Shown: positions 1,301 to 62,504 of the stretch, one piece after another | How positions within the stretch are numbered: the first letter of the stretch is position 1 | Layout: every line of letters begins with the position of its first letter | Origin: Mytilus edulis | Lineage: Eukaryota | NCBI RefSeq assembly: GCF_963676685.1 | Contig: NC_092353.1 | Location: 29,574,001-29,638,000 of the forward strand | DNA length: 64,000 nucleotides | Direction: 5' to 3' | Position numbers and translations under genes: made by a program | Notes under the pieces: model-generated | What the model was told of the DNA's origin: nothing | Seen by the model: the letters and a program-made list of their open reading frames with translations, nothing else | Database searches by the model: none

Positions 1301-4130
1301 TATTATACTTTTATCAAAGAATATTTAAATAATAGTTGTTTATGTTTTCATCTTGCATTTTACGTCTGTCGTAACAAAATAAAGTTATAAAAGGTTCTTG
1401 GTGATTTCTTTATAAAGATAAACATAAAGAAACACGACAAGGTAATGTTTAAAAGGTTGATTTATTAAAAGATAACAATGTCTTTGAAATGCTACATTAG
1501 AAGCCTTCCAATTTCTGTAGTCGGGGGATTTAGAATTGAACATATGGTACAGCTACATGCATTAATGTCTGTTGTATAGTGTAGCGAAAAGAAAGACAAA
1601 AATGCGTCGATATCAAATAAAATCCAAAACTGTCAATATCACGGCAAAAAAAAAAAATACAGGACGAACAATTCGACATAGTTAACAAAAACTGGAGGCG
1701 ACCGCCGGTGCTCCAGAAATTGTAATCAGTATCTTCCATACGGTGATAAAAATATCATTCGGGGATGCCACAATTAAGTTGAAAAGGATGGGATAATGGT
1801 TAAAACAAATCGAAGTTATCCCGGATTATTTGAGTGATTAAACTTGTGATGGCGTCCGTTATATTTTTAGAAGGTATGAGTTAACTTCACAAATTGGAAT
1901 ACATTCTGTGGAAAATCGTACTAATTATTCTTTCATAGTTTGCATCTTTCTTATTTTCCAATAGAAATCTATGCTTTTTCTGCACTTACAATACAGTACA
2001 AAAAGATGACTGTATTCTTGATATATTTATTCATTTGTTTTATATTTAACCGTTTAATCGTATAATTGACTACTCTCTGCTATTTATAAATGGACTTAAT
2101 AATATTTCTAGATCATTGTTTTACTTGTCTGTTATTACTTCTTTTTCTTCTGCAGAGATTCAGAATTTATTAACAATTAATTACTAATCTAGCATATATC
2201 ACATATAGATGTATGGTCATAAATTACAACGGGACATGTGATGACCTGCCATTTGATGAAAATATTTTGACAATATTTGTAGTTTGTTCTCATTAGCTCG
2301 TTTTCAATCTGTAATATGATTTTCATGATGACAAATAAACAAAAACATCAGACAAGCACATTGATTTATAGGACGAAGATGTTCCATATTTCTTTGTATT
2401 ATCATTCCTTTTGATTTATAGCAGTGATTAATGGAATTTTTTTTAAAGGTCATTAGGGGTTAAAAACTAAAACATAAAGTCACCTTAGACTTAACAATCG
2501 TAGGCTCTGTCAACCTTTTTATTTATGAAAATGACATACAAATTGCAAGTTGTTGTCATACCAATGGTTTAACGGCAAAGAGTTATGAAATTGTTGAACC
2601 ACTCAGCTTAATTTTGAAAAAAATCGTCTTACCACTTAACTGTTGAATACAATTACGAAACATAAATGGTTTCCATCACTTGCAATATCTCAACATGATG
2701 AAAAGACTGCATCAGATTTATTTGTACGGACTAGAAAATTATACAAGACCTCAACCATACGCATATCTTGCATTCATAACATTTTGTTTGAATTATAGGA
2801 ATCGTGTATCACATTTATCCAACAGAAAGCCTCTTAAAACCTTCAAAGAAGAACAACAAAATAAAGTATACAAATAAAGGCAACAGTAGTAACCGCTCTT
2901 CAATTGTCATAAATCGCTTAAGCGAAACGCAAAACCAGTCACAAACCAAAACCACCTTTATGATGAAACAAAAAGAACAACAGAAACACTAAATTGCTAC
3001 CCAAAAAAATGTCAACATACATAGAAACGGACTAATTTATAACAACTGCCAAGTTCCTGACTCAGTAAAGGACATGTTAATGAAAACAAATGAATGGTTG
3101 AACCTGGTTTTATTTCTAGCCAAACCTTCCGCTTATACGAAAATTCTTAACATTCATATTTAATTTGTATTCAACGGTGATAACTCTTATAAACATAAAT
3201 CATAGAAGTATTACTGTAAACAGACTAAATGAAGTTCCCAAGTAAGACAGGAAGTAATATAAGCTAAATGTACGTATTTTATCAATGTACTTATCCAATA
3301 AGTGCTTGACTTACGATGCCTTCCGAACATGAATTACAGCCAAAAAGAAAACCTTTATTTTATTATTTTTTTTTGTTTTTGTGAAGCTATCATCATCATG
3401 TTGGTCATATTCGTACTAGTATATGTTTTTCCTTAAAAAAAATACCTTCAATTGTATAGCCCTCGAATTTTTTGTTGAATCAAGGACATGCACAAGAGAC
3501 GCACCAACGTCATAAAGGGTTATTTCTATTTGAGATCTACAAAAGTATTTGAAAAGTACACAGTTATTGAACACGTGAGGCATGATTCTTGAAATATATA
3601 GTATTATACGTGACAGTAACAGATTAGTTATAATTTTCTCTAAATCAGCGATGAAGTTAATGTCATGCATGTTAATACCAATATCTGATGAGCTATAGGT
3701 AAAATTAAGCTCAGGTTTTGCATAGTTCATACTATTAACATGAGGAAAGGTTTTTGCTTCGAATATGTGTGGGAGATGTTTTAGCTAGAAGTCGATAATT
3801 AGTCTATTCTCTAAATTAAATCGGAAGTTTGAAGACAGCGCAAATTACCACTATGTTTTGTGAAATAGCATCATAATTTAACCTTTTGACGTACTAGAAA
3901 TTTCAATCAGGAAATTATCTAAATAGCATGGCTCGTGATTAAATGCATGAGTGAAAAACAGAATTTACACCAACGAAAACAATTTACAGTAGGATTTCAA
4001 GTTTAGCTATTGTAAGTGCCTTCAGTGAAATGTCAGTTCAACGAATTCAGCAACGTAATCTTATTACCTCTATTGCATAACACAGGTAGCAGATTAAAAT
4101 CAGTTGCTATAAAATCATACCTAGTTTTAA

Positions 4131-5248
4131 GGTTACAATAAACCATTTGATGTTATGGGCGCAGCCATTTTATGAGCATAACATGGTCTTCAGAATTAAG
4201 AGTATGGCTTATCCTGATTGGTCGATATGTGCGCCCGTTATTTTTTATTATAAGAGACTTCGTGCACTCTGCTTTATACAAAAGGCAAAATAAATTATTT
4301 TCCTTAACCCCTACGGAACTGACTTGACTTTTCAACGCTAGAACGAGACACGTATGTTTAAGTGCAAATTTGATAGGCATTTGATAAGCATAAGTACACA
4401 TTACGCTAAGAAAGGCAACGCGAACCTAAATTTTTTTTCGACCAATCAATACTGTCCCAATAACTTTTCTTTTAATTCTAGCAAGGTTTCGTTAAAAAAA
4501 ATCACTTTCTAAAGTTTGTATCTCGAAAAAGGCTACCATTGTCACCGTGAAAAACGCCACATGCGGGGTGTCGGCTATGTTTGACACGGTATTATGATAT
4601 GACATTAAAAGTTGAATGTACTTCATTTTGCCTTCATTCAGGCAAAATGAAGTAACTTCAGTTTGTAATGTCTTATCATAATATAACTTAGATGTGTTTG
4701 AACTAAAAAGTATCAGATAAAGACCGATTTATATGCAAATCTATTCCATTTTTATTAAAAGCCTCTACCCCTTGAGATACAAAAGCTGACACCCCGAGCG
4801 ACACTTCATATTTTGATGAAAAAACTAGTTCTAAAACCAATTAGTTTCAAGTAAGAAGCTGGTATTCGGTTAAATTCCATGATAGGAATTCAATTCTATA
4901 TAAATGATACGAGAGGAAGTGGTCTAAAGTAGTTTTTTATCCCGAAATTTGCATATGAAGCCTCCAAATCTGCAACACGGAAAACTAGGGAGAGGTGTTT
5001 GAGGAAACAGAGCACTGAAAACGACTGCTTATGCTTGCAAGAAATACATTATGTTTCAGTTCATTCAGTGCAATACATTATACGGTACTAAGAATTCTAA
5101 AAAAAAAAAATTTTGATACTTTAACTTTCTTTGATAGTTTTTCCCGGCTTCGAAATTACCACCCGGTGTCAAACATAACAGACACCCCGCATGTGGCGTT
5201 CAACACGGTGATTGTCGCCTATGAGAAAATTAATTGTTTATTTCAAAC
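4131..5248. mobile_element. TTAA-flanked non-autonomous DNA element with imperfect terminal and internal inverted repeats
   Basis: TTAA at 4127-4130 and 5249-5252; termini ggttacaataaac / gtttatttcaaac. Removing it and one TTAA restores collinearity with the paralog at ~48681-48703. Confidence 0.8.
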
Positions 5249-8226
5249 TTAACAAACTATTGTTTTCAATATAACGAATAATCTATCCGATTTAGATATT
5301 TCTGTTCGTAAAAGTATAACATCGAAGTTCCTTGTGCGTGCGATTGATATGTATGTCTAACAAAATACGCTTCCGTACTAAAGTAATGTATATGCCGCTG
5401 ATTTGTAAAAAAAACTATATGATGTTTTCTTTCAGTTCCCTTTTTTTTTGCTCTTCACAATAACTTTCTAGAGAGGTGTCATGTGGGACCAAACAGATAC
5501 TACCACTATATATAATTTTGTTTACAATATAAAAAAAAACAATATTAGCAGTTAAAAGAGAAACTAACAAAAGCAGCCTGTGATTTTGATAATACATTGT
5601 TATTCATGCTTTAACAGGCTTCGTGTTGCTCATTCCTTATATTTCTTTATTATAATCTGTATATTATTGTTTGTCTTTTGGTCCTATTCTGGTTTTTTTC
5701 ATAGCTTAATGAGTTTAAAAATTCCTTTCATATTTTTCGCCTCTTTTTTACCAAACTTTTCAAATCTAACAAAACATAATATAAATAGTTCATGTCAACT
5801 AGACAGCCATGTAGAATTTGAAGTAACAAATTATAATATATTCTAACGAATCAGTTAAAATTCAGTTTGTGGAATGGTTTCATATAGTTCTTTTTTTCAT
5901 AGTTACTTTCTTTTAATGTAAATGGTTATAATGCAAATCGTTAAGTTGGAATTGGTAAACATTACGGTTAATGAGGTAAATAAAGATTAATTGCTTCAAA
6001 TGATGTCAAACGTTCTATAACAGTACAATGAAAACATCTCAATCATTTGAATGAATTTCAAACCCACACTTGACATCTCTGATTAAATTTTTGATCCATC
6101 ATAACTACTCTCTTTCCCTTAAACCGTGGGTTTTCCCTTTAAAATTTGAGTAAGATCCCCATATTATCTTATTTAATAGATTAAATATCAAATTAGGTCG
6201 ATGCTATTAATCTGGGTGAAAAACACAACAAAAGTTGTTTACTGAAGGGGCTTAATGAAAATGTCAGAGAACTCCCATGCAGTATTATCTGACAAACTGG
6301 TAAATATTGACAGACAGATAAATATTGACAAGATGCTAAATTAAATTGTGCAAAATCACTAAAATAATGACATATTGGATAATTGTCAACCACTATATGT
6401 TTTATGTTTGCTAATGTTTGCTCAACAGATGCAGTCCCGCTGTTTTGCATCCAATCAACGGAAAATACTTTGATGAGTTTAAAATAGTTCTTAATATGTC
6501 GAATAACCTTTGAGGAATGGGTATATTTAGAAAATACGTGTTAATACAGTTTCATCATGCCTATTATATTCTGTTATATTCTAAATAAGAACACAACTTA
6601 TAACTATATGTCAGTGACATCCTATCGTTTTAAATTGTTTCCCATTGCTGAAGTCTTTTTTTAACTTAAAATTATCGGTCAAACTAGTATACAGTACAAT
6701 TTAAATACATAGAAGTAATAGCATGAAACTAAAAGTAAAACGTTTTTTCTTTGAAACATGATTCGCTGTGCTTTAATTCATCTAATATTCAAAAATTCAC
6801 TACTCAAGTAACTAACTTTCATAATAATTTGATTTATGACAATGTTAATTATGTTGATAGATAGATTTATTTATTCTTAACTTTATAATATCAAGTTGCA
6901 TATCTTTTAATTGAGAAATATTAACCTCACGTGTACGATACGACAAAATGTTTTCAAAATTGTAAAAACTTCATGTCAACTAACCTTTCCTGATCACGTA
7001 AGGAAAACATATTTGCTTACTAAAAACAAATTAAAACCGTTATATAATGGTCATATCGCGAAACTTTTATGCATTTTTCAATCAAACAGATCAAATTTAT
7101 CTAAGAATTTGTTTTTATGCGCTCTCGGTAATTAAAGTGTTTCTTCACGAAGATTTGTCGCTGTAAAAACCAGATATACTCGCACGACATGTACTGAATC
7201 TTATCATTGAATGTTCCTCCAACTTTTCTTAATTGTTTTGGTTTTACTTTCTATTCTGAGTTATTGAATTTGTCGTTCGGGTAGGCATCCACGACATTTC
7301 ACTGAGCATGCTTTAAGACATTTGAGACGCAAATTTTTTTCTCCAGAATAAGCATGATCAAAAACTTTCCAGCTGCATCCTTAGAAAAAAGTGACAAAGT
7401 TTCATTCCATGATACAAAACTTTACACACGAGACTTTGCTTAATCGAAAGCATTGAATCAGTTGTTCTTACAACGTATGGTTCCAACGATTTTTTTTACG
7501 TTAACGCATAATTACTTTAAGATTTTATATCGTTATAAAACAAAGTAAGGAATTGAAAAACAGCTGTTGTTTAGTATCAATTTTTAGCAAATGGCAACAA
7601 CATCCTAACAAATTTCAAGTCTAGATAATGTTGACTTAGGAAAATATCATATATATATATATATTTTTAAACGTAATTTGTTTTAAAAGACTTTTGTTTG
7701 GATAAACCTTTGATCTTTTCTATAAACTTCCTTCACAGGAAGACAATTTATCAACTGATAAGGATCGTTTGGGACAGTTATATGGCTTTTTGTTTGTGTG
7801 TGTAATTTTGCGGAATTACCCATTTCTCACTTAATTCTTAGTAACTAAAGCATGCATTACAATTATCAACTAAAGCATCATCTCGTTTCCGTATTGTCGT
7901 TTTTACGATTCCAGATTTTTCATTTCGCATTACTTAATTTTCGTTTTAATGGAATAGCCAAAAGATCTGCTCAATAGATATATATCATCTAGACAAGGTA
8001 CCATTACGATGTCCTGCTATCACTTAATATACAAAAGAATATCATCGTAAATATCATGTAAGAGCTGACGTTTTACTTAATTTTTTGCGTAAAATAGGAA
8101 TTATGTGTCAGCAATTTTTATGTTATTTCTCTAGCTGTCTCATTATTCTTAGCTGTTGATATAAGAATTCGCATTGCAACAGACCTTAAATGACAAATAT
8201 TAAGACTATCAATGTAACAAGTGATG

Positions 8227-8343
8227 TTCACTTAGTTTAACTCAGACATCTGGTTAAACATAAAAAAAAAATTGCAAAGATCTGCTTTTCACTTAGTTTA
8301 ACTCAGACATCTAGTTTAACATAAAAAAAAAATGCAAAGATCT
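8227..8343 (+). repeat. Two-copy 61-bp tandem duplication (single copy in paralog at ~56876-56925)
   Basis: ttcacttagtttaactcagacatct...aacataaaaaaaaa..tgcaaagatct repeated. Confidence 0.9.
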
Positions 8344-8731
8344 CGTTACAGTTAACAAACCATATCTCAACGCAAAGACTATGGGTCAAATTTGGTAATG
8401 AGGAAATTTGACAAAATAAACCAGAAAACAAGCATAGGTTTATCGGCAGTCATTTGTGGGAAGGAAACGAACTGCAAGATAAATTCAAAACTGAAAGTCC
8501 CTTATTCTAAAGTCAAAATAAAAAGCTAAAACACATCAAACGAATGGAAAAAAAACTGTCATAGTCCTGACTTTCTACAGGAATTTAGTGATGCAGAAAA
8601 TGTGGATCAAACCTGAGTATATATCAAGGTAAATTTCTTAATTGTATAACAAATGGCTGTTTAAAAACTTCCGACGACAACAGTAAAGGTTTTGGAGAAA
8701 TTGTATCAGCAACTTTGGTATATTCCTTTAA

Positions 8732-9012
8732 CGTTGAGTCGTTTGTGTTTTCTCTTATTTTTGAGAAATTGAGATAAGACGTGACACGGTACTTGTCTAT
8801 CCCAAATTCATGTATTTAGTTTTCATGTTATATTTGTTATTCTCGTGGTGTTTTGTCTGATGCTTGGTCCGTTTCTGTGTGTGTTACGTTTCGGTGTTAT
8901 GTCGTTGTTCTCCTCTTATATTTAATGCGTTTCCCTCGGTTTTAGTTTGTTACCCCGATTTTGTTTTTTGTACATGGATTTATGAGTTTTGAACAGCGGT
9001 ATACTACTGTTG
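8732..9012 (+). mobile_element. 5'-truncated short retroelement (family D) specific to duplication copy 1
   Basis: Flanked by CCTTTAA at 8725-8731 and 9013-9019; empty site at ~57525 (actcctttaaaatatatt). A related older element lies at 2875-3140. Confidence 0.8.
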
Positions 9013-11849
9013 CCTTTAAAATATATTATGATAGACATTTCTTGGCTCCGAAATGTATGTTACAAAATGTATTGAATATTATAAATTCGTCATATTACCA
9101 GATTGCAAAAATTACATAACAGGCCTATGTACATGACATTCACTAATCAAGTATAATATCCATACTATCTCAAACGGTAAACACTATTCAGGTTAACGTG
9201 TGCTGGCGTTCTGATATGAAGGTTCTTTCATCGTTACAGGAAATAGTCAACAAGACAATTATGTGTAAGGTAGTTCTATTACATAGAATATTTAAAGCTA
9301 CAATAAATCTTACTGCATCTTATTTGTTTGCGCATATAGCTTTTATGTTTCTTTATATAGCTAATTACATCTATTCTTGAAGAAAATAGAAAACTTTATG
9401 GACACTTATAACAAATGCAACGTTATGATCAGGAATATTTGTTATCAGTCAAAACATAGACACTATAATCACACCGATATAACGGTTACTTCTCTAAATA
9501 GCAAATATATTGTTTCTGTTTCAATTAGCAATTTAAACTACAAAAAACTTACCTTACATGCAACATTTAAAATGATATGTCAATAATCTCAGCATCCCTT
9601 GAAGAGCAGCAATCTGTTTCAAAATGACGAAGGCATGTCATTAGAATAATTAGCCATTATATTCAACGTCAATTATTAACACTCCTAATTCTAAGTTGTA
9701 AGACGGACAACAACATGTGTTGAATGAAATCCCTCAATTTGAAAATGCTTCTCGTCTACCAATGTTGGTAATTTGATTGATTTAGTCTGATCTGATCAGT
9801 CAAAACATTCCCATCGACTTCTTCTGTAATCTGATACTATTTCACAGGAATCCTAAATAGACTGAAAGATGTACGTTTGCCACTAAGTTATTCTCAGGTA
9901 AATGGTATAATCAATCGCCTGAAAATATTGAATCATTAAATCTTTTATTTACAAGATTTTAAAAATCATAAAAAAGTATGGTGTCATCGTGCTTTGGTGG
10001 TATACTCTTCATTCAAGAAGAAATGATTTACTTCTTTGTGACTTCTTTGTGTTCTTTATTCGTGTATACGTTTCTGATATCTTAATTTTGATCATTGTAA
10101 AGCTTACTGTATCAAAGATTAAGAAAAAATACAAACTTAATGGTAATCAATTGTCTGTTAGATTTAAGGGGTTTATTAAATCTATATTTCAATTGTTTTC
10201 ATAAAAAGTATTGTTAGCTGTATTCAATACACTTGAATTACAAAAAAACAAAAAAAAACTTAAAGATTATTGTATTTGTGGGGAGGAAAAACGCCTTATA
10301 GATAAGCTATTCTATTGAATTTCAAATTCGATCTTAAACCTAAAGCATAGTAAGATTTTGTCGACAATTTTACCTCACCAAATAGGCATGTCAACAATTA
10401 ATGTCTCTTTATTGATGCTCGTGGACAAAATAATTGAAAATAAAAATAGTATTACGAACTTTGAAGATCTGATATGACATCAAGGGATCAGAAAGATAGC
10501 CAAACCCAAACAAAAAAGGAACCAGACCTAAACATGAGGGAGATATGTCCCTTAATTGAAAATGTCTCTTTAAAGATTTAGAACAGCAATAAACATCACA
10601 AAACATACATCAATTTGAGATTTCAACATATATTTCATTACGATACAAACATAGATATCGGTTTCCTCATCCCCTGATATAGCTGTATTTTTTATCTTGT
10701 TTACATAATAGTCGAATGATGTTCAATAATTCTGTCAATACTCACCATTATATCGTGTAGGATAACTAGACACGGAAAGACAATGATAAATACCAATGTT
10801 TCTCTACGAATTAATTTGAGAAGTATCAGTTACAGCAACATTCTTATAATTTGTCTGTGTTTTGACAAAGGAAGAAACGAATCAAATATATTCTGTCTGA
10901 GTTAAATTTATATGCAAAAACTTGTTTCCTGGTGTCAACTGATACTACTGCTATGATGTATTTAAAATAGAAGGAAAATATTTGTTATCCATAATCAACG
11001 TCTTTATGTAAAAATTTTGTATTTAGCACGAAAATAGTATCCTAAGTTGAAGACATTAAGTTTTGTATTTTGTATAGTGAATATTTAACACAACATTATT
11101 TTCAGAATCAAGGTCAATTTTGAATCTAATCTTGTATGATAGGAATCTCAAAATATCCAATATTTTGACTATAGCATAAAACCGAACAGAAAATCTAAAA
11201 GGCTTCATACGCCATTTTCATCCATGGAAGACAATGTTTACTTTTTTTACTGCAGGGTTTTCTTACATAAAGCGCTTTGAGAAATCAGACAATAAGTGCA
11301 CTAAGCACATTTTGTAAATGGTAACTTTGGATGGTAGACATTTTTTTTATTATTGTTTGAGATAATTTGGACCTTAGCACTTGTTTATTTAAATGAAATC
11401 AACCAGGACTATTTATCCATATACCCACGTTCTAACGTAAACATACTATTGATTGGTAGATCGAACGCTCGAATACCATTAACAACGATTGAACTGAATA
11501 TCTGTCGATGGAACGATTTATTTTTTGTTAAATTCTATGCCAAAACAAAATATTTAAATCATAAAAGATAAAAGTGGTAAATTATAGTACTATCCCTGTA
11601 GTATACTGGGAGGTCGTAACAAGTTGTAAATTTTATCATGTTATGTCTTCTCAAACCAAAAGAAGGGGACAATGCAGATTCCTTAAATCCAGCCTATATA
11701 AAATGTTTTAAGTTATGTCGTAAATCTTTAGAGAAATTGTCAATATGACACAAACTTATGTCATAATAGAAGATACTATTCAATTACGACACCATTTAGT
11801 ATTGTATTATAACGAAAATAATATGCATGTTTATGAGATATTTTCCTTG

Positions 11850-12140
11850 TGTCGAAACCACACATTCGCCTCCTTTTCTGAAATGTGACCTACCAAATTA
11901 GACTTATTACTGGCTTTGTACTAGCATGAGCAACACAACGAGTGTTACATATGTAGCAGGATCTGCTTATCCTTCCGTAGCACGTGAAACCACAGTTTTA
12001 TGTTGGGTTCGTGTTGCTCAGTGTTTATATTTCTATGTTATGTTTTGTGTCTGTTGACCTTTTTAATATCCAGACCGTTGTCATCATATTTTCGATATAT
12101 AAGTTTGATTGACCATTTTGTATCGGTTGCCTCTCTTCTA
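11850..12140 (+). mobile_element. Degenerate PLE 3'-UTR remnant (also 61380-61680; similar remnants 1640-1900 and 45570-45800 on minus)
   Basis: Matches the PLE 3' UTR (tgtgacctacc..., agcaggatctgcttatccttccg, gggttcgtgttgctc). Present in both duplication copies, so it predates the duplication. Confidence 0.75.
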
Positions 12141-12299
12141 TGATATATATCAGTCAATTATCGATTTAGATGATTGAAAAACAATGTTATCTGCTGCGCA
12201 TTTGATCATTTTGGGAATTGGAAAAAATAGAATCCAATAATATCATATTCGACATTGACATATATTTTGAAGATCAAATGAAAAGATTACAATACCAAA

Positions 12300-12383
12300 T
12301 ATAAAGGAAGTGTCTCTTAAATCCTCAATTACAATTCATCTGAGAAGAGTACTAATAAAACAGAATTGGTTTTTAGCGTAAGA
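12300..12383 (+). promoter_or_regulatory. Candidate TATA core promoter plus short non-coding first exon and donor (paralog 61841-61926)
   Basis: TATAAA at 12300 followed by GGAAGT, Inr-like TCAATT ~25-30 nt downstream, and donor C|GTAAGA at 12378. All retained with the same spacing in copy 2. Confidence 0.4.
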
Positions 12384-15300
12384 TATTTTTTTCCTGTTGA
12401 TCCTATTAGATTAGATTGTTAATATTTTTAGAAGTCAAAGCATATAGTTGAAAAATCAATAATGTTTATTTAGCATCTGGTAATTTGTGGTTACGAAATT
12501 TCTTCAATAAATTATATCTTAATGTAAAATACCAATAACGGTATTAAATTCCAACAGAAAGATAGACTTTTTGTGTGACATTGTATATCTTTACAATAGA
12601 TAAGGAATAAGTTGTGGTATGATTGCAAATAAGACAACTCTCTTCAAGTGACCGAGTCATTTCTCAACTTATGAACGAAACACAAATATGATATATTACA
12701 ACAAACGGCAATTATGTGCTGGATAACAGATTCCTGACTTGTCAGTCACATACATTATGTTGCGCGTTAAAATTAGTTTGAATGTTTGTTAATGACTTGA
12801 GTTATTATCTATGAATAAATGGTCTTACCTTTAAACGTTTTTTTTTTAAATAATTATTTAAGGTAGCGAGACTGATATATTTGTATTTACAACATCTATT
12901 GAGTTGTTAACACAAATTACAAAATGCATATTTACAAAACATAATGTGTACAAAAGACGATAAAAGATACATAATTTGTATTACCATGTGTATATAGTTT
13001 AAACATTGTAAATAAAAAAATAGCAAAATAAAAACAAAAATATACCCGGAGGCCACCAATGGGTTCCGATACCTAAAAACTCTGATAGGATATTTATGCA
13101 TTCTTCCTTGTTAGATGATTATCAGGCATGTCAAATTATAGATTTGAGAAGTCTATAGAAATATCTAACATGTCATCCTGATTGTCTGACATAGCGTACC
13201 GTAATCTTTAGAACCTTTCTTTACCCTCTAGCCATCAAATAGGTATTTAGAGAGATGAAGATTTTATTTGTCATTCAAACTAATTGTCTGCCTTTAATTA
13301 TGAGGCTTATCTTCGACAAAAAAGTATGCATAAAAAACACAAGTTATGCCACATGATGAGTACGATCTGCTAACTGTTGTGAGAGTATGAATTCATCCAT
13401 GTTTGCTGTAAGGTTCGTGTCTTTAATTTTCCGTGTTTACGTTTGAAGACTTTTATTTGTCTCTTGGTCATTACCTTGTTTATGTTACTTTCTCTTATCA
13501 ATTAGAATATCCCTTAAGTATCTCAAATGTATTGTCGATGGTAGCGGAAGTTGCGGTTTTGTAAGAATTGTTGCATTATTAGATTGAAAACGTAATTGTC
13601 ATCTTTCTCCAACTATATTCCATAAGAACGGAGACAAGAAAAAAACTAAGAAAATAAATTCTCAGTTTAGAATCTTCAATCTAAATATTTTTATGAAATT
13701 TTTCATATTTATCACCATGAAAAGATAACCTTCAGTGTTTATGACAAAACCTTCCAGAGATTTAGGTCCTCAATGCTCTTCAAATTTGTACTTTTTCAAG
13801 CTTTTCTTGACAGTTTCAAGCGTCACGTGTGAGTAATCCTGGTAACTATCCTGGTGAGTTTATTCAAATGTTATACAGAACAATGTGTTTTTCTGCGGGT
13901 CGAAACAGTCAATGAAATATATCTACAGGTTTGATCTTACCTTTACAACAACTTATGATGTCAAAAAAAGTTGAAAATACTCTTTTAAGGATTGTTTTTT
14001 TACTGAAAGAGAAAAAATCGAAAAACTCTTGTTCTGGTATGTCAATTGGTACATTCTGTTTGAAATCCTAAAAGTCAATTGTATGGTCTAACGTAATATA
14101 GAGATGATACTCTCTAAACAATACCATGTAACTGAATATCTAATAAATTTAAGTACTGTTAACTGTTTGTTCTTCTTAAAATCCGTTTAATGTCAAGAGT
14201 TCCACAAACATTTCATTTAAACTGTTTTATTGGAAAATTTTCTGCAATAAGTTGTATTCATACTATGAATATAAAGCATGGATTCGTTCTTAGTTTTGAA
14301 TGATCCGGAAAAAGAAATAAAGCAATTACACTTTCAGTTATATTGATATATAAATGAGATTTCATTACATTTAAGTAAAAGCATTTCACAAAGGAAGCCA
14401 GTATAACAAAAACTCATAAAGTCTATTGTCCTAACTTTTCATGAGTATTTTGACTTTTTAGACGGAAATCGGATAAGAATAATCAGCAGCGGAAGCATTA
14501 CAAGACATAATCTCTTATCTCTTTTGTTCCATTTGATGGAATTTTAATAAAATCACTATAGGGCTGCTTAAGACGTGAACTTTAATTAAATATTGACAAT
14601 ATTTGATTCACGTGTTTTGAATTGGATTTTTAGATTAATGAATAGACCCCAGAGTTAAAGATATGCTAATTGTAGCTCAGTCATTACCGGAAAAATATAT
14701 TATTCATCTAGTGCACTTAAGGTCTTATTTGCATTGTACAGATTTATTTAATTTTCTAATATACTGTAGGTTTATTTATTTCCGGGTGTACCAATTTTCG
14801 TGGATAAAGGAACAATGGTATTTTCGATCATCTTTAATGTTGTGGTTTTGTCTAGGTCTGCATATAAGCCTATGGATAATTTGCTATTCGCTGAACAGTT
14901 AGATTAACAATTACAAATACAATTAAGTCGTTTAAAAGTATTATTTAGGTTAAGTGTTAAAAAAAAATTCCAAAGAAAATTCAATACGGAATGTCCCTTA
15001 TCAAATGGCAAAATTAAAAGCTCAAACACTGTCATATTCCTGTACAGAGAATAAAACCGGGTTTTAAAGCTAGATAAGACTCTTACTTGTATAATAGTCA
15101 TGTAGAATGAACAAATGTTGGTAGTATATAGCAGTAGACTTACACCATTGACAGACACTTTTATAAGAAATAAGATAAAGTTGTGAGAAAATTCATGCAC
15201 GTTGGCAAATAATGCACAAAATCAATTCGGATGAATAAATATATTTTAATGAAAACTTACAAAAGATTGAAAATAAGTAGAACTTGAACAGTTATATCGC

Positions 15301-22100: not shown

Positions 22101-23124
22101 TAAATTAACAAAAATATCAAACTCCAAGGAAAATTCAAAACAGAAAGCCCCCCTATCATATGGCAAAAGACTTAAAAGTATTTAAATGAAACACGATTAA
22201 ATCAAACCTAACACTATTAAAGTTTTCAAAAAACAGCGCAACATAATAATCCAATTTACATACCCAAGATTTCTTTTAGCTTAGATTTATATATTGAAGA
22301 CTGTTTTCTTTACTAACAAAAAGCTATGTATTATAAAAAGTATTGATGCGATTAGTACGCAAGCAAACTAAGTACTTCTCATTGTAAAAATAAGATTTGG
22401 TTATTCATTAATGCTCCCTTTGGTCATGTAGCTTGTTGAAGTACTTAGACACTGTCGGCTTTCAATTTTTCATATGAGCATTCATCACGAAAAGCGCTTC
22501 GGATTGGGAAATCTATAAGTGGTTATTTTCATTTATTTTTATAATACAGACTGATTCAAAAACCTGGGGAGGGGAAGGGGCTGATGTCAAACACAATTAG
22601 ATAAGAATATCAACTGAAATATAATTAAGTTCAGCAACGACACATTTTGACTTTTAACAAACTCATTGTTTGATACATGCTGAATAATTGTGATGATAAA
22701 TCTGATTATTTATCTTTTTTACTTCATCTCAAAACAACAGGATTGCTTAAATTGGACATGCAATTTTCACATTATGTTTTGATACGAGGACATAATTGAA
22801 TTTTATCTGTGTTGATATATATATATTTAGATCCCCTTTTATAGTAAAACCATTATTGAGATAAAAGCAATCTCTTTTCAATATCCATTATTCAATTTAA
22901 AGGCAAACCTGATAAAACTTGATGAAAACAGTTGAATTTAAATTAATTCAAATAGAAAAGCTTTTATGGACTGATTTTTTTACACCCAAAGTTAAATTAA
23001 ATTTTTACAATTTGTTTTACCTTAATAAAGGTTTAATATTATACTAAATGGTGCATAACATTTTCGGGAACACATATACATTTCGATTTTTACTACTATA
23101 TACCATTGTTCCTAAAGTTCACAT

Positions 23125-23532
23125 AATAGTTATCAAAAGTACCAGGATTATAATTTTATACGCCAGACGCGCGTTTCGTCTACATAAGACTCATCAGTGA
23201 CGCTCAGATCAAAATAGTTAAAAAGCCAAATAAATACAAAGTTGAAGAGCATTGAGGATCGAAAATTCCAAAAAGTTGTGCCAAATACGGCTAAGGTAAT
23301 CTACTCCTGGGGTAAGAAAATCCTTAGTATTTCGAAAAATTCAAAGTTTTGTAAACAGAAAATTTATAAAAATGACCATATAATTGATATTCATGTCAAC
23401 ACCGAAGTGCTGACTACTGGGCTGGTGATACCCTCGGGGACGAAACGTCCACCAGCAGTGGCATCGACCCAGTGGTGTAAATAGTTATCAAAAGTACCAG
23501 GATTATAATTTTATACGCCAGACGCGCGTTTC
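23125..23532 (-). mobile_element. Hammerhead retrozyme (non-autonomous, PLE-associated), 355-nt monomer plus 53-nt terminal direct repeat, 5-bp TSD
   Basis: Direct repeat 23125-23177 = 23480-23532 (period 355). TSD CATAA at 23122-23126 and 23532-23536. Contains an intact hammerhead; no coding capacity. Confidence 0.9.
23160..23203 (-). ncRNA. Type I minimal hammerhead ribozyme
   Basis: RNA GCGUCA-CUGAUGA-GUCU uaugu AGAC-GAA-ACGCGCGU-C|UGGCGU: full core, stem I GCGUCA/UGGCGU, stem II GUCU/AGAC, palindromic stem III. Predicted GUC cleavage between 23166 and 23165. Confidence 0.92.
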
Positions 23533-26612: not shown

Positions 26613-29600
26613 ATACTAACATTTATTCGATTTATTATAACAAACTTGCTTTCAGTCGGAAACGTGTTCAGAAAAGTTTTTTCTTATTCGGTTTTGGTCC
26701 AGCAAAAGTTTATTGTGTGCTTTAGTGTGTGAGAGAAGCCTTAGAGAGTGCCAAAGAGGAAATATTTATCACAGATTGGTGGTAAGTGTATTGTGTGCTT
26801 TAGTGTGTGATAGTGTGCAATAGTTAGATCTCATCATGAAGTATTACGAATAGGCTACGTAGGATTTCATCATTCCCTTTGAAAGTTTTATCAATCTAAA
26901 ACAATTTCTTTTATGTGTATTTCACTTCAAAATAAATACAGATAGAATCGATTGATAATGACAAAATGTACAGGAAGAGATGATAATGTTAATAAACATA
27001 ACATAAATAATTATTTTGTTAACAACTCTTATTAGAGTTATTTCCCTTGAATTGTTATACAAAATTATTTGAAAAATATGTATTTCGAGAACCCAAAGTT
27101 TTGTAGATATAAAACCTTCACCAATAATCTTCAGTTCATGTGACATATAATTTCAAGACAATTTTAAATGATCACTGAGTGTTATATAACTGCATTCGAC
27201 GTTTTAGGCGTGTCGGAATAGACGACAAATCTTTGGTTTGGTGACCGGTGACGTTTTCTGTAGTTGTTAAATTCATTGCCATTGATGACTATCTTCTCGT
27301 TAGATCTTGTTTTATATCATTATCACGTCAAGTTACAATTATGAAGATAAAATTATAACCTTACACATTGATCATACATAACATCGATTGTTGTCCTTGA
27401 AATGCTATTCTGATAATATAAAATGTTAGTCTGGTATGATTTCAATTACTCTGAATCAAACATGGATAGATACAAATTGTACAGTTGATTTTGACATGAT
27501 ATTGAGCGAAGTAATCAAGAACAATGTAATTTATATTCAAATCTCAAGTCACTTATAAATAAAACGGTTTTCACAGTTTCGTCAAAACTGATTTTTTATC
27601 TGTTGGATTGTTTTACGGAATTAATCGCCTTTCGGTACGTTAATTGTATTACTTCTGTCATAGGAAACCAAATCGCAATTGTCACATCAATAAGGCTGCG
27701 AGAACAAGATTTAGTTATTATTTTATACATAGAATGTGTTATAAGAGATTTGTCAATAACTATGTCGGTTTACCAATATTACATTAATAAAGAGTTGACA
27801 AGTTTTGAAGCCAACGAACGCATAAAACAATAGTACAATTTTCAAATAGCATTAAAACCAATGAGTGCATATAAAAAGAGAATGACACGTTTCAAATACC
27901 AAAAATGAAACAGGAAAACAAAAGATGCATACTACAAAAACATTTTGAAATTATAAATAATCAAATAGAAAGGTTTGTTCCGGAAAAGGATTCTAATAGT
28001 GTAATTTGAAATTCAAGATAGCAAATAATAACTGCAAGACAAGTATTGTAAGAAAAGTTGTTGGTTGAATGTCATCCAAACAGAAACAACATATGATATC
28101 ATTAGTAGCATACAGATAAAGAGAACTTGAAGTTAAAATAAAAAGAGCGCTCAGAGAGCTACTGAGTTTATCACCCTTAAAATAATTGGCACTTAAGTAC
28201 AAATTGTTATTTAGGTTTATGCCATCATTGATACATAGTTTGTTTAGACAAAGCAGTGAGACTCCGTTTCAATTAGCGATTTAGATACATTATGTTTCAA
28301 ACTCAGCGTACTTAAACAGACATCTTCAAATGACTGTCAACTAAACTATTTATTACACATTAATTGGACTGTTTGTTCACGTTTCCATCGGTTGGCAATG
28401 TTCCAAATGGTTTCCTGGTAGACTCGCAAAATCAAGACTTCAAAATAACAAAGATTTATTGAAAATGAAAAAAAAAGAGTTGTGCTATAAAGTAAAATAA
28501 CGGACAACAAAAAGACAGATATAACCAAAACGTAAAATTAAAAAAAAAAACGAACTAAAAGGAAATTTCAAAAAGGAAAGCCCTTTATCAAATGGCAAAA
28601 TCAAAAGCTCAAACTCATCAAACAAATGAAAAACAACTGTCATATTCTTAACTTGATACAGACAATTCCTTATGTAAAAAATGGTGGTTTTATACCAACT
28701 AAACCTGTCACTTGCATGACAGTCCTATTGCATTCCCTGATATTGACAACGATGCGTCAGCAAAACGAAAACAATAACAATAGAGATAAAGATGTCAAAA
28801 AAATTTGGGATATACCAGTCATCATTGTATGATAATCATATTCACAATAAAACAAATAGCTATTTAAACAAAGAAATATAAAATGGTATATAAACACTTT
28901 ATAGACTATCGAACACTGTTCTATGACCTTCAATAATATGCAAACCCATATATTCAGCTATAAAAGCCCCCAACATTGTGAAAAATGATGAACAAATCTA
29001 GAATGACCTGATTTTTTGCTGAAAACTATTAACGAAAAACAAATATGAAAGAAAGCAAGCTCCTAAAACTAATAACTTTCATGTCTTAACATGTTTGTTA
29101 ACTCTAAAAAAATAATTCGGGAAAAATTTTGAAAATAGTAGTTTGAAAACATTTTAAACTCCCATGTTTTAAAAAAAGCTAACAGGAAAATATAAAAGCT
29201 TTATGACTAGTTTAAAAACTTTGGATACCATTAAAACATTTAATCCCGCTGCAATTGTTTGCACCTGTTCTAAGTCAGGAATTTGATGTTCAGCAGTATT
29301 CGTTTGTTGACGTGGTTCATAAGGATTTCTCGTTTTTTATATAGATTAGACTGTTGATTTTCCCGTTTGACACTAGTAATTTTTGGGGCCCTTTATAGCT
29401 TGCTGTTCGGTGTGAGCCAAGGATCCGTGTTGAAGACCGTTCCTTGACCTATAATGGTTTACTTTTATAAATTCTGACTTGGATGGAGAGTTGTCTCATT
29501 GGCACTTATACAACATCTTCTTATATCTATCAAATACATTTTATTGTGGAAGACAAACCAACATATGACGAAAATTATACAAAATTTCGAAATGTACGCT

Positions 29601-35436: not shown

Positions 35437-36356
35437 AGAGAGGGACGAAAGATACCAAAGGGACAGTCAAACTCATAAATCTAAAACAAACTGACAACGC
35501 CATGGCTAAAAATGAAAAAGACAAACAGAAAAACAATAGTACACATGACACAACATAGAAAACTAAAGAATAAACAACACGAACCCCACCAAAAACTAGG
35601 GGTGATCTCAGGTGCTCCGGAAGGGTAAGCAGATCCTGCTCCACATGCGGCACCCGTCGTGTTGCTTATGTGATTACAAATCCGGTAAATAGTCTAATTC
35701 GGTAGGTCAAATTCATGAAAGGGAAGGGGATTGTAGTTACGACGTGAGGAACATAATATCCGATATCATTTGTGAAATGGTTATTCCATAACGGTCAACC
35801 AACTCGTGATGGCGTCCGTAAAATTTACGAAGGGATGATTTCAACTTCACCATTTGGAACTCTTGATTTAATAGCTTCCTTGTGAGCAGTAACCCTCTAT
35901 CAAGAAAATCATGATAGGAAATGCAAGCACGGGAATATCGTATCAATTGAGAGATATATACCCCGTATGCAGGTGCTGCTGGAATGTTGCTACTTAGAAA
36001 TGGAAAGTTCACAATTGGAAAGCTGAAATCATCTCTTTTGTCGTAAAGTTTTGTCTTCAACCGACCCTCATTGTCAATTTCTAGATGTAAGTCAAGATAT
36101 GAAGCTGACTTAACTGTATCTGTAGTATCCTTTATCTCCAATTCGATGGGATAGATGCGTTCCACATAGTCACCAAATTTTGAATTGTTTAGTGAAAGAA
36201 CGTCATCTATATAGCGGAAAGTAGAGTTAAAGGATATTGCTAACTTCTTATCTTTCTTCCTAAGAAGTTCCTGCATGAAGTCAGCCTCATAATAATAAAG
36301 AAACAAGTCAGCAAGTAGAGGGGCACAGTTTGTTCCCATTGGTATGCCGACAGTCT
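35437..36356 (-). mobile_element. 5'-truncated Penelope-like retroelement (RT C-terminal half plus 3' UTR) with 6-bp TSD
   Basis: Begins TVGIPMGTNCAPLLADLFL, contains FRYIDD, YLDL, LYDKRDDF and SNIP..PAYGVYISQLIRYSRAC (PLE RT motifs). No C-terminal GIY-YIG before the stop, consistent with the N-terminal-endonuclease (Naiad/Chlamys-like) PLE clade. Flanked by ACAAAG at 35431-35436 and 36357-36362. Confidence 0.9.
35737..36356 (-). pseudogene. Truncated PLE reverse transcriptase ORF (motifs B'-E and thumb)
   Basis: Uninterrupted ~200-aa frame with YIDD catalytic motif; N-terminal RT motifs and endonuclease are missing. Confidence 0.88.
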
Positions 36357-36984: not shown

Positions 36985-37900
36985 CATTTTTCACGAACGA
37001 CAAGCGTTTCGTTTTAATAAAACCCACAGTGGCATTCGAAAAAATACTCAGATGAATCCAATACGCAGTTCAAGATCATTGAAGGCCACAAAATCATTAA
37101 AAAGTTGTGCATTATGCAGTTAAAAACATTCATTATTTCATAAACAGATCATTTACAGGAAATAATACATTTCATGTCACCACAAAAATTTTAATTACTC
37201 GACTGGTGATGATAGCCTAGAGGACCAAACACCAACAAGGGCATCCGCCAATGGTTGTAAAAACTAAAACATAAGAGAATTTAAAGTTGGTACGCCAGAT
37301 GCCCGTTTCGTCTTTACAAGACTCGGCAGCGCCGTCGAAATAAAATAGTTGGATGGACAATTCAAAGAGCATAAAATACTGCAAATAGATATAGGAAGAT
37401 GTGATGTGAGTGCCAATAAGACAACTCCCCATCCAAAAAAACAATTTATAAAAGTAAACCATTAAAGGTCAATGTACGGCCTTCAACACGGAGCCTTGGC
37501 TCACACCGAACAAAAAGCCACAAAGTCTCGATTCGACTAGGGCAGTTAACAACATCCTTAGTGTTTCAAATAACTCATCATTTTATAAGATTAATTTACA
37601 GAAATATGAACTCATCAACGATATTTCAAGTTAACATAATGATGACTATTCGGCTGGTGATGATACCATCAGGGATGAAACGTCCATCAACAGGAGAATC
37701 GACAAAGAATTTCTCAAAAATACAAGTCTATCAATTTAAATAAATAGTTTGAAATGCATACCACTCATCATTGGCGCTCGATTAAACCAGTTAGAATGCC
37801 AACATCATCAAATACAAATTTGAAGAGCAATTAAAACTGTGCATCGGAAAGATCCTACCAAATACAGCAAAGGCAAACGATGCCTTAGGTAGAATACAAT
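36985..37900 (-). mobile_element. Decayed head-to-tail array (~3 monomers) of hammerhead-retrozyme-like repeats, interrupted by a family-B fragment (37386-37520)
   Basis: Recurring degenerate motifs: gcgtttcg..., ctggtgatgata...gga(c/t)..aaac (37203, 37654), tacgccagatgcccgtttcgtc (37291), actcatca..ggcgctcg (37763). Confidence 0.6.
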
Positions 37901-46600: not shown

Positions 46601-46876
46601 TGTAAAAATTATGAAAAATTAATGGGTTCATAAATTGCGTTCTCTTATTATAATGAGAACACTTTGTTCATCATATTTATTTGTACGGACTAGGTAAAAA
46701 AATTATACAACACCTCAACCATACAAATATCTTATTTTCAATATCTGACTTGATCAAACATTTTGGTTTGAATAATAGGAATCGGATTTATAAAACAGGA
46801 AGTATCTTAAATCATTAAAAGAAGAACGTTAGGAATTATACAAAAAAAAAGACAACAGTAGCATTCCGCAGTTTAA

Positions 46877-47280
46877 GTTGAAATCATCCCTTCGTAAATT
46901 TTACGGATGCCATCACGAGTTGGTTGACCGTTATGGAATAACCGTTTCACAAATGATATCGGATATGTTCCTTACGTCGTAACTACAATTCCCTTCCCTT
47001 TCATGAATGTGACCTACCGAATTAGACTATTTACCGGATTTGTAATCACATAAGCAACACGACGGGTGCCACATGTGAAGCAGTATCTGCTTACCCTTCC
47101 GGAGCACCTGAGATCACCCCTAGTTTATGGTGGGGTTCGTGTTGTTTATTCTTTAGTTTTCTATGTTGTGTCATGTGTACTATTGTTTTTCTGTTTGTCT
47201 TTTTCATTTTTAGCCATGGCGTTGTCAGTTTGTTTTTGATTTATGAGTTTGACTGTCCCTTTGGTATCTTTCGTCCCTCT
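46877..47280 (+). mobile_element. Short 5'-truncated copy of the same PLE (last RT codons plus 3' UTR), inserted after the duplication
   Basis: Near-identical to the reverse complement of 35437-35850. TTTAA at 46872-46876 and 47281-47285; absent from the paralogous site near 2895-2905. Confidence 0.9.
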
Positions 47281-48063: not shown

Positions 48064-49317
48064 ATATAGCCTAATTAATTCGTAAAGTTTTTGTTAAATC
48101 AAGAAAATGCACAACAGACGCACCAACAGTCACAGTCACCGATTTGTTATAATTTTTTTCTAAATTAGCGATGAAGTTCGTGTCATAGATGTTATTTACA
48201 ATATATATGATGAGCTAGAAAGTTAAAATTAAGCTCAATTTCTGCAGAGTTCTTGCTTATATCATAGAGAAATGTTTTTTCTTTGAATATGTGTGAGAGA
48301 TTTTTTACTGGAAGTCCATAATTCGTCTATTCTCTATGTTAAGTTGGAAGTTTTGAAACACACTAACACGTTTATATGTTGCGTTTTTCCTCAATCAAAA
48401 TAGTATATTCGTAAATTGCCATTATGTTTTGTGAAATATCGTCATAATTTAACCTTTTGAGAAATTTCAATTAGGAAATTATTTAAAAAGCATGGTTCCT
48501 AATTAAATGCATGAGTGAAAAACAGAATTGGCACAAAAGAAAACAATTTACAGTAGGATTAAATTTAGCTATAATAAATACCTTCAGCGAAATGTCAGTT
48601 CAACGGATGCAGCAACATAATCTTATTAACTCGATTGGATAACACAGGTTGCAGATTAAAATCAGTTGCCATAAAATCATTACCTTGTCTGAATAAATTA
48701 TTGTTTTCAATAAACGAATTATCTATCTAATTATGATGTTTCTGTTCGTAAAAGTATCAGATCGAAGTATCTTGTGGTTGCGATTGATACTTATGTCTAA
48801 CAAAACATGACCAATATGGGAAAGAGTTCGAATCCAAACAAAAATGGTTGACGATATCGGTTGGAAAACATTAAAATACATTTTCACAATTTGTGGTTTC
48901 CTAGGTCACAAACATAAAGATAGAGTATTTGTTTTCCAATTAAAATTGTGTTCTTATGTATTCATGAGGAAACATTAAATACCATTTCGTACTTTTAATA
49001 CCATGACCATTTTTTGATAAAAATGATTTGAAATTTAAGGCTATGTAATGCATGTTAATTGCTTCAATGATCTTTCAACATACTCTCAATAAAATGCGTT
49101 AACAACAGAGTGCTTGTTTGTTCTCATTCTGCATTGTAAACTTACAAGGTTCTAATAGAATTTTTTCATGAATGAACAAAACAATAAATACTAAGTAATC
49201 TATATGCAACTGATTTGTTAAAATCAATCTATGTGTTCTTACTGATTGCTTCAGTTCATTTATTTGTTCTGAAATCGGTAAATGTTTGCTCTTCACAATA
49301 ACTTTCCAGAGTGTCAT

Positions 49318-49646
49318 AGTTATCAAAGGTACCAGGATTATAATTTAGTACGCCAGACGCGCGTTTTGTCTTCATAAGACTAACCAGTGACGCTGATATC
49401 AAAATAGTTATAAAGCCAAACAAGTACAAAGTTGAAGAGCATTGAGGATCCAAAATTCAAAAACGTTGTGCCAAATACGGCTAAGGTAATCTATGCCTGG
49501 GATAAGAAAATCATTACTTTTTCGAAAAATTCAAAGTTTTGTAAACAGGAAATTTATAAAATTGACCAATTATTAATATTCATGTCAACAACGAAGTGTT
49601 GACTACTGGGCAGGTGATACCCTCGGGGACGAAACGTCCACCAGCA
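49318..49646 (-). mobile_element. Hammerhead retrozyme copy with mutated core, inserted after the duplication
   Basis: Homologous to 23128-23457. TSD GTCAT at 49313-49317 and 49647-49651; empty site at ~5477-5482 (gtgtcatgtggg). Core reads CUGGUUA...GACAAAA, predicted inactive. Confidence 0.9.
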
Positions 49647-51519
49647 GTCATGTGGGATCAAACAGATTCTAACACTATATATCATTTTGTTAACACAATT
49701 AACAAAACCAATAGGAGCAGTTAAAAGGAATCTTACAAAAATAGCTCATGATTTTTATAATAAACTGTTATCCATGTTTTAACAGGCTTCGTGTTGCTCA
49801 TTCCTTTTATTTGTATGTTATTATCTGTATATTGATGTTTGTGCTTTGGTTCTATTCTTTTTTTTTTCATAGCTAAATCAGTAATAATGTCCCTTTAAAT
49901 TTTGTCGCCTCTGTTTTACAAAACTCAAATCTAGCAAAACATATATAGTTGATGTCAACGAGCTAAAGACAGCCAAGTAGAATATTTGAGGTACCAATTT
50001 TATGATATGTTCTAACAAACAGTAAAAATTAAGTTTCGGAATTGTTTGATTAAGTTTTTTTTCATATATGTTTTTTTTTAATGTAAATGATTATAATAAG
50101 AATCGTTATATCGAAAGTGGTGATCTTTACTGGTTAATCCTCCTACATTTGTTGGAGATAGAACAGTTCATATTAAGGAAAACAGAGATTAATTTCTTTA
50201 AATGATATCAAACGTTCGTAAACAGTACAATTAAAACATATGAATCAATTGAATCAATTTCAAACCCACACTTGTCATTTCTAATTTAATTTTTGGTCCG
50301 ATATAACTATTCTCTTTCTCGTAAACCGTTGATCTTCCCTTTTACATTGGAGTCAGATCCCTATATTGTCGTATTTAATAGATTGAAAAAACAAATATGG
50401 TCTATGCCATTATTCTGGTGGAAAACACAAGAAAAGTTGTTTTCTGAAGGCGCTGAGGGGAATGTCAGAAAACTCCCATGCAGTATTATCCGACATAACG
50501 GTAAATATTGACAGAAGGATAAATATTGATAAAATACTGAATTAAACTGTGCGAAATCACTAATATAATGACATATTGGATAATTGACAACCACTATATG
50601 TTTTATGTTTACCAATGTTTGCTCAACAGACGCAGTCCCGCTGTTGTGCATCCAATCAACGGAAAATACTTTGGTTATTTTAGAATAGCTCTTAATATGT
50701 CAAATAACCTTTAAAGAATGGATATATTTAGAAAATACGTGTTGATACAATAACACCATGCCTATTATATTCTTAATAAAAACAAACTTTTAACTATATG
50801 TCAGTGACGTCCTATAGTTTAAACATGTTTCCCATCGTTTAAGTCTTTTTTTATCCTAAAATAATCTTTCATACTGGTACACAGTACAGTTTTTATACAT
50901 ATAAGTTATGGCAAGAAACTAATAAAACGTCATTTTGAAAACATTATTCGCTATGCTATAAATTATATATAAATATACTAAATAAATAAATGATTTGGAA
51001 AATACATTGAATGTATAAAAAGTCATGAGAATTCCGAATGTAATCAGGTTATATCCGGGCACTCTGGTTGTAAACCTTGGTTCCATCTGGGTTTTCTGGT
51101 TCTGAACCTTGGTTCTTTGGTTCGAAACCATGGTAACTGGTTCAACATCCGGGTTGTCTGGTTAAGGCAACCCAACTTCTTGGTTCCATCTGGGTTGTAT
51201 TCTAGATCATTCTAATGTTCCGTTGAACATAACAGAAGATAACCGCAAGTCTCCGAATAAAAAGGTAAAGTAGGTCAAAGACGCTAAAATTATTTTATAA
51301 CATTAAACATTTTAGCATCGACGGTAAAGGAAGCTATGAGGTATTTATCTTCTCATTTTAATTATTTTGATAAGGAAACTAGATAAAAATAAAGCATCGT
51401 ATAGATTTTTAAAACAAACCGAAGTATACAGTACATCGAACATCCTTTTATTTAATTCAGTCGTTTTGTTTTCTTTTTTTTCCCCTTACTCATCCCTTGT
51501 TTACGTAAATATGTCTAGA

Positions 51520-62500: not shown

Positions 62501-62504
62501 TATA

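Follow-up and report, generated by a model that had tools for sequence, protein, structure and literature searches.

A conserved hairpin beside the fixed end of a mussel retrozyme is shared with hammerhead-free Naiad elements and is a candidate reverse transcriptase-positioning signal

The window analysed here, a stretch of 64,000 nucleotides of Mytilus edulis, carries a non-LTR retrozyme insertion together with other retrozyme copies and fragments of Naiad, a Penelope-like element (PLE), as follows.

23125..23532, minus strand: non-LTR retrozyme insertion of 408 bp, consisting of one 355-nt unit and a 53-nt repeat, with a fixed 3′ end at 23125 and a truncated 5′ end at 23532
23160..23203, minus strand: type I hammerhead ribozyme, read from the sequence, with its core at 23191-23197, a palindromic stem III and cleavage between 23166 and 23165
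23395..23414, minus strand: UUCG hairpin found in retrozymes but not in Naiad (family comparison by eye), adjoining the shared hairpin on its 3′ side
23416..23473, minus strand: conserved 58-nt hairpin common to Naiad PLEs, with P1 of 7 bp, a 1x4 internal loop, P2 of 6 bp, an invariant bulged core and P3 of 5 bp with a 3-4 nt loop
23474..23479, minus strand: 6-nt spacer between insertion-end position 23480 (equivalent to 23125) and the hairpin base
23515..23532, minus strand: partial second hammerhead without CUGAUGA, equivalent cleavage site 23520
35439..36351, minus strand: 5′-truncated Naiad fragment (RT C-terminus and 3′ UTR) that stops at the Naiad fixed end, without the hairpin
37196..37256 (approximate limits), minus strand: decayed hairpin copy with a 3-nt insertion
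37647..37709 (approximate limits), minus strand: second decayed hairpin copy with the same 3-nt insertion
46875..47280, plus strand: second Naiad 3′ fragment
49316..49648, minus strand: further retrozyme copy, 5′-truncated within the hairpin

Retrozymes are recognised by tandem units of about 170-400 nt and by a cleaving type I hammerhead in each unit. Both were found here, namely a 355-nt period in arrays distributed genome-wide, and a hammerhead whose core and stems are present in the sequence and at whose cleavage site 116 RNA 5′ ends lie. Unit size, copy number and ribozyme type agree with the non-LTR retrozymes of M. galloprovincialis, described in the available text as tandem 350-390-bp units with a type I hammerhead, in thousands of copies and several families (Cervera and de la Pena 2020, PMC7229834). 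In the genome searched (G000), the hammerhead pattern gave 19,860 matches, a 38-mer of the motif was found in 3,277 exact copies, often 355 bp apart (control pattern 0), and the motif core gave 10,400 matches (control 0). Pattern searches distinguished four main retrozyme families, F1 to F4, with differing hammerheads and units of 350-366 nt, plus the variants F2b and F5. The hairpin is 78-93% identical between families and the rest of the unit 61-66% in five of the six family comparisons, the sixth, F1 with F2, showing little excess conservation (hairpin 87% vs remaining unit 82%). The neighbouring UUCG hairpin (23395-23414, minus strand) also displays two-sided changes among F1, F3 and F4 by eye. 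Elsewhere in the window, a short plus-strand stretch at about 22470-22512 looks by eye like a deleted F4-type hammerhead, and another dispersed repeat family with many copies occupies 29385-29530, 37385-37525, 52279-54013, 58991-59131, 62179-62468 and 63495-63888, one copy of which splits a decayed retrozyme array at 36986-37891. Positions 441-13996 and 44120-63997 form a long diverged duplication, probably a duplicated gene region, with pieces 66-92% identical and about 44-50 kb apart.

The motif had been predicted from the letters alone to be a pseudoknot-like domain, in which the helices GAUGCC/GGUAUC and GCUGGU/ACCAGC cross each other around an inner hairpin. Its sequence and coordinates were confirmed, with P1 formed on the minus strand by 23467-23473 and 23416-23422. 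The letters also contain the GAUGCC/GGUAUC helix, the 6-bp GCUGGU/ACCAGC complementarity and the inner hairpin. The motif does begin a few nucleotides 3′ of the fixed end, 6 nt from the equivalent junction, and the decayed copies pointed out near 37200-37255 and 37650-37705 are recognisable, each aligning to the motif with a 3-nt insertion. Its parts are the following.

23467..23473, minus strand: P1 5′ strand, partner 23416-23422, with two-sided changes in 3 of 7 pairs
23460..23465, minus strand: P2 5′ strand, partner 23427-23432, with two-sided changes in 3 of 6 pairs
23433..23458, minus strand: invariant core CUGCUGGUGGA ... UCCCCGAG, flanking the variable apical stem-loop P3 (23438-23450), with invariant alignment columns
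23423..23426, minus strand: 4-nt internal-loop strand, ACCA here, which differs between families without a matching change in GCUGGU

Ten representatives were aligned, namely F1, F2, F2b, F3, two F4, the Naiad family N1, two of the Naiad family N2, and a metagenome Naiad (L132); pair counts exclude F5 copies, whose fetching pattern forces a break in P2, and two decayed N2 copies (L224 and one of the three in L223). Read as a nested hairpin, the alignment has 230 of 230 cells paired and 8 of 23 pairs changed on both sides, the nine invariant inner pairs carrying no information on structure. RNAalifold gives the nested hairpin for the alignment, and every intact family representative is predicted likewise. 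As the rows of the alignment are only 10 and related, its shuffle control overstates significance. The folding energy of the motif beats its shuffles (z -3.09, with 3 of 200 shuffles equally good). When the same alignment is read as a pseudoknot, each of the three nested helices is paired throughout, and they have 2, 3 and 2 pairs, respectively, with changes on both sides, whereas the crossing helix, formed by strand 23423-23426 and the first two P1 bases pairing with GCUGGU, shows two-sided changes in 0 of 6 pairs and is broken at 3 of 6 in some family, its 5′ strand being invariant. Of the six bases opposite that strand, two are part of P1 and covary with it, one showing a two-sided change there. 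The original prediction had named missing covariation of the crossing helices as its own refutation, and for GCUGGU/ACCAGC none was found in the 10 rows. Furthermore, the model links the 3′ strands by 0 nt and the 5′ strands by 3 nt. Such links are unusual for H-type geometry.

What speaks for a pseudoknot, or for a transient switch to the crossing helix that would echo the telomerase template/pseudoknot core, is the perfect 6-bp complementarity in F1-F3, the 91.7% of crossing-helix cells that are paired in the 10-row alignment, and the G-U one-sided changes in two pairs. Among 12 published Naiad consensi, compared by eye, the crossing helix is complete in one, four to six of the six pairs are possible in seven, such that a brief contact is possible, and only two or three of six can form in five (three oyster, one pearl-oyster and one deep-sea mussel Naiad). 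In the same 12, P2 is intact or minus one pair and P1 retains 6-7 of 7 pairs in the 11 complete ones; three carry an extra hairpin inserted beside P2, and that position is therefore a free bulge. We thus regard the pseudoknot as very unlikely: the claim that two crossing helices coexist is contradicted by the nested prediction for every intact representative and by the lack of two-sided changes, and with a nested fold the telomerase-like template/pseudoknot layout is unsupported. The motif is predicted to be one long nested hairpin, with the invariant core at 23433-23458 as the likely region of protein contact.

Transcripts of the family were examined in RNA runs X1, X14 and X24; for X24, raw reads were sampled at about 6 in 100 and 6,271 were placed. 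Reads placed on the window represent the whole retrozyme family and not this copy, whose upstream hammerhead is incomplete. Over 23414-23436, X24 depth is 1,479 vs 292, about 5:1 in favour of the minus strand when strand is assigned by the usual library convention. The original prediction had called the strand evidence mixed, with one G-U pair favouring minus and one outer pair favouring plus. The family-level one-sided changes are G-U wobbles in the minus-strand polarity, the Naiad ORF runs in that same polarity, and the RNA reads lean the same way; the polarity is therefore that of the minus, or ribozyme, strand, and the plus strand is set aside. Exactly at the hammerhead cleavage site 23520, 116 RNA molecules start (depth 402), and 156 reads jump back by 355 nt, which circles and tandem transcripts fit equally. 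Retrozyme RNA reads in X24 cross the insertion junction with no end pile-up there.

This RNA evidence bears on whether the hairpin could itself be a ribozyme, one that cleaves its own strand a few bases to its 5′ side and takes the place of the hammerhead that Naiads lack according to the available text of Craig et al. (2021; PMC8557442). Such an activity would suit the invariant core and the nearby fixed end. However, X24 has no site near 23474-23480 above the many-molecules threshold, which the hammerhead site passes (116 of depth 402), nor is there a many-molecule RNA end site at the Naiad junction, where depth is low. Circles are reported to be abundant in mussels (PMC7229834, available text) and would not survive a second cut, and the hairpin has neither a multi-helix junction nor an Rfam match. 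The suggestion of an unrecognised catalytic RNA, also made in the original prediction, thus finds no RNA-end pile-up at the motif whereas the hammerhead has one, and we consider it very improbable. Searched against Rfam, the window had no match, not even at its true hammerhead, and a set of 5 loci had a single weak match to a hammerhead.

Several other identities were considered. HDV-like ribozymes are nested double pseudoknots with P1.1, P4 and a catalytic C in J4/2. The motif has no bases between its two 3′ strands and no Rfam match, and an HDV-like identity was rejected; by eye, neither this layout nor the twister and pistol layouts fits. A non-circularly permuted hammerhead (as in the available text of PMC10085705) was discarded, there being no CUGAnGA in the sense strand around the motif. 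We also rejected a Pol III B-box in the P1 5′ strand, the unit having 6-9 T runs of at least 4 and these bases covarying with P1 in N2. The F1 plus strand does resemble a type I hammerhead, with a CUGGUGA ... GAAAC-GUC layout, and 124 copies there carry CUGAnGA, which could make the hairpin a degenerate hammerhead of opposite polarity. The 124 copies are scattered point variants, set against a consensus found in at least 3,277 copies, CUGAnGA and GAAA never occur together on the plus strand in any of F1-F4, and Naiad together with the wobbles sets the opposite polarity, so that this idea is scarcely credible.

The hairpin is not confined to retrozymes. Comparison of retrozyme F1 with Naiad N1 revealed a single common segment of 55 identities in 63 nt, lying at +3 to +66 from the fixed end in both, with a score of 86 (the best after masking is 22, and the maximum of 200 shuffles 35). 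A search of G000 for the sequence following the commonest Naiad-like 3′ end gave 175 matches, and most of those listed are the start of the motif, some at a 3,370-bp spacing; where Naiad units of 3,370 bp stand intact in tandem, the fixed end is immediately followed by the hairpin. The N1 ORF of 995 aa (P0001) has an N-terminal cysteine motif CXnCxxC followed by GIY-YIG (both read by eye), then CxC (as CTC) and DKA, and a C-terminal RT; RVT_1 matches residues 640-849 below the curated cut-off, and homologues carry PF01541 and PF00078. The hammerhead core CUGAnGA...GAAA is absent from 6 of 6 Naiad units. Domain order, motifs, partial tandems and the missing hammerhead agree with the Naiads of PMC8557442 as available, and the assignment of the N1 units is by these features. 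All 150 scored matches of a Naiad protein search in G000 belong to the N1 family; 45 of them are identical over the 166-residue endonuclease region and many lie within intact 1,000-codon frames, and the family looks recently active. A second Naiad family in G000, N2 (L224), is 49-73% identical to N1 over tblastn pieces and carries a diverged version of the hairpin.

Beyond this genome, a metagenome scan with a pattern that left both crossing helices free yielded 33 matches, 31 of them chance and two real: L147, an F2 copy, and L132, a Naiad whose diverged motif follows the end of a Penelope-like RT frame and has no hammerhead core upstream. A pattern for the L132 variant had one match in G000, the level of chance, and viral contigs gave 0 matches to the hammerhead pattern and 0 Naiad relatives. 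In the available part of the supplement to PMC8557442, 12 of 54 Naiad consensi are headed by the hairpin core, the 11-nt core occurring 11 times at or near the start and once across a line break; the 12 come from three oysters, an ark clam, a pearl oyster, three mussels and a toadfish, and include three hemichordate elements. Looser versions begin three coral consensi and a Modiolus consensus. The Scon, Mmer, Ebur and Tama consensi in the same material show no such core where they begin, and it is therefore not universal in the Naiad clade.

The distance of the hairpin from the insertion end is also conserved. In 195 of 241 terminal copies of six families, the end lies 2-9 nt before the first P1 base (F1 93/115, F2 37/52, F3 14/17, F4 5/8, N1 32/34, N2 14/15), a spread over 8 nt that is partly due to chance matches with AT-rich targets, and the other 46 end elsewhere. 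Some N1 loci were picked by a pattern containing the end, and the unbiased N1 subset gives 7/8; the loci picked by hammerhead only give 30/39 for F1 and 18/27 for F2, beside the 7/8 for N1 and 4/4 for N2. In truncated Naiad copies, 747 RNA reads break off at L190 6743-6746, which is the Naiad end. The hairpin itself spans +7 to +64. No second end cluster, as a PLE tail would give, appears among the terminal copies, and stalling of the RT at the hairpin was rejected, since 72 5′ ends show no pile-up there. Given target-primed reverse transcription, and given the fact that genomic ends of the Poseidon PLE PAc coincide with RT start sites in vitro (Frangieh et al. 2024, PMC11167929, available text), the fixed 3′ end would mark the RT start.

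Shared ancestry alone accounts for the similarity, and the hairpin could then be a functionless relic of Naiad capture. The conservation above the rest of the unit in five of six family pairs, the retention of all nested pairs and the preserved distance to the end in all four retrozyme families all count against this, and we give a relic hardly any weight. A somewhat more serious, yet unlikely, alternative is that the hairpin marks the end as an RNA 3′-processing or termination signal, as part of an internal promoter, or as a DNA element read by the endonuclease. It stands at the start of the unit, about 65 nt before a conserved TATA-like box, and recognition of a DNA "tail" by the endonuclease in Penelope is cited in the available text of PMC11167929. 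On the other hand, the covarying helices and one-polarity G-U wobbles point to a single-stranded RNA fold, retrozyme RNA runs through the junction without an end pile-up, and retrozymes retain the hairpin but not the TATA-like box.

Some further arrangements of Naiad sequence were observed. In the L190 unit, the TATA-like box lies at +129 after a conserved GC-rich stretch, and an ATG in strong context near +157 from the fixed end; stretches resembling +115 to +160 of this unit occur in several published Naiads, and 3 of 30 copies have Naiad 5′ ends at +144 to +156. The region +115 to +160 is a candidate for an internal promoter with the true start codon. At L223:3712-4039 (minus strand) three tandem units of about 130 bp consist of the N2 3′ end and hairpin only, with no ORF match, and two N1 hairpins at L206/L207 are 201 bp apart; these hairpin-only repeats are possibly minimal hammerhead-free non-autonomous derivatives, or local duplications. 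Two sense fusions were seen among the 100 matches listed (L188:1500-1680 and G000:C5:10383319), in which a Naiad 3′ end is joined directly to a retrozyme that starts just before its own end and hairpin. A single RT that switched templates could have produced them, as could insertion into T-rich target sequence used by both elements. In L132:1-145 (minus strand) the frame after the hairpin has, by eye, an in-frame TGA three codons past a cysteine, either decay or selenocysteine, the latter being described for some clam Naiads.

The best reading of these observations, drawn from sequence comparison, is that the hairpin is an RT-recognition and start-positioning element of Naiad which the retrozyme has borrowed. 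It is probable that it serves as the site bound by the Naiad endonuclease-RT, from which the start of target-primed reverse transcription is measured. That the motif may be an RT-binding or positioning element was part of the original prediction, and this part gains strong indirect support from its presence in autonomous Naiad PLEs at an equal distance from the fixed end; the pseudoknot and telomerase layout attached to it does not stand. The Naiad protein would bind the invariant bulged core and nick AT-rich DNA, and cDNA would start 5-7 nt 5′ of the hairpin base, and therefore the hairpin would be left out of the last unit. Naiad RNA would carry the hairpin behind the start site only by read-through from one tandem unit into the next, and we propose that this need is the reason for the partial-tandem (pLTR) layout. 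The retrozyme may reach the same layout through hammerhead cleavage and circularisation, or as a multimer, and an RT running around circular retrozyme RNA would generate 355-nt arrays all ending at one point. Binding, the measuring of the start site and the templating by circles are all inferred. With its signal outside the copied stretch, a Naiad RNA would have to be a tandem read-through product, and a retrozyme RNA circular or multimeric. A presumably non-coding retrozyme keeps exactly this piece of the autonomous element, at the autonomous element's distance from the insertion end, and among published Naiad consensi, as available, the hairpin is distributed from bivalves to hemichordates and a fish. 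We give even chances to a broader reading, in which the hairpin is a portable address of the Naiad RT, outside the copied region and fixing the start 5-7 nt before its base, such that any RNA with the hairpin behind the template, above all a circle, would be an insertion substrate.

In SINE-LINE pairs, the shared signal is the copied 3′ tail. Here, by contrast, the signal lies beyond the copied end. The closest experimental parallel is the Poseidon PLE PAc, in which the RT starts internally at +111-118 and RNA is needed to +172, some 55-60 nt 3′ of the start (PMC11167929, available text). PAc thus resembles the hairpin elements in having a fixed internal RT start and required 3′ RNA whose reach is similar to the hairpin at +7 to +64, an analogy with another PLE clade that is drawn by description; the required region is not resolved to a conserved structure in the available text, and PAc has two start sites (tail), whereas the retrozyme and Naiad copies show no second end cluster. 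In most species the telomerase RNA pseudoknot lies downstream of the template, the ancestral form presumably having had none (PMC4993307, available text). The likeness is one of position only, both cases having structured RNA on the 3′ side of what is copied, next to RTs that are related. The hairpin element lacks the pseudoknot, the short template that is copied repeatedly and the boundary on the 5′ side of that template; whole retrozyme and Naiad units are copied, the 72 5′ ends being spread along the unit.

As regards the available literature, retrozymes and Naiads have been described before, as have internal initiation in one PLE, the candidacy of PLEs as mobilisers and the homology between retrozymes and pLTRs in Xenopus. 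PLEs have been proposed as likely mobilisers of mussel retrozymes (PMC7229834); compared by description, its main text names no partner clade, fixed end or shared cis element and contains neither "pseudoknot" nor "polarity". The main text of PMC8557442 leaves the hairpin undescribed ("stem-loop" and "hairpin" are absent), though its published consensi start with the core, and it ties retrozymes to HHR-bearing PLEs in general terms only. Sequence common to retrozymes and the pLTRs of PLEs has also been reported, with the proposal that retrozymes use the enzymes of PLEs as SINEs do those of LINEs (Li, Clavereau and Pollet, bioRxiv 10.64898/2026.07.22.740005). The available text of this preprint covers vertebrates, mainly Xenopus, and "Mytilus", "bivalv", "hairpin", "stem-loop" and "pseudoknot" are absent from it. 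In contrast to the Xenopus case, the Mytilus retrozymes would be paired with an element that has no hammerhead, and a single 60-nt hairpin is all that the two have in common. Within a mostly non-subscription literature, no description was found of this hairpin, of its occurrence in both retrozymes and hammerhead-free Naiads, or of the fixed spacing, a negative to which the supplementary data of PMC7229834 and the preprint may be relevant.

Which RT mobilises retrozymes and how Penelope-like RTs choose an internal start are open questions in the available texts of PMC7229834, PMC11167929 and the 2026 preprint, and both become testable with the candidate enzyme family proposed here, of which numerous copies are intact, together with an RNA element of 60 nt and a spacing that has been measured. 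The partner suggested here lacks the hammerhead, the very feature thought to tie retrozymes to PLEs, and the pseudoknot form of the telomerase analogy is removed. If the portable-address reading is true, it would name the enzyme that moves these retrozymes and explain the need of PLEs for tandems, and a relative of telomerase would gain a defined RT anchor 3′ of the template.
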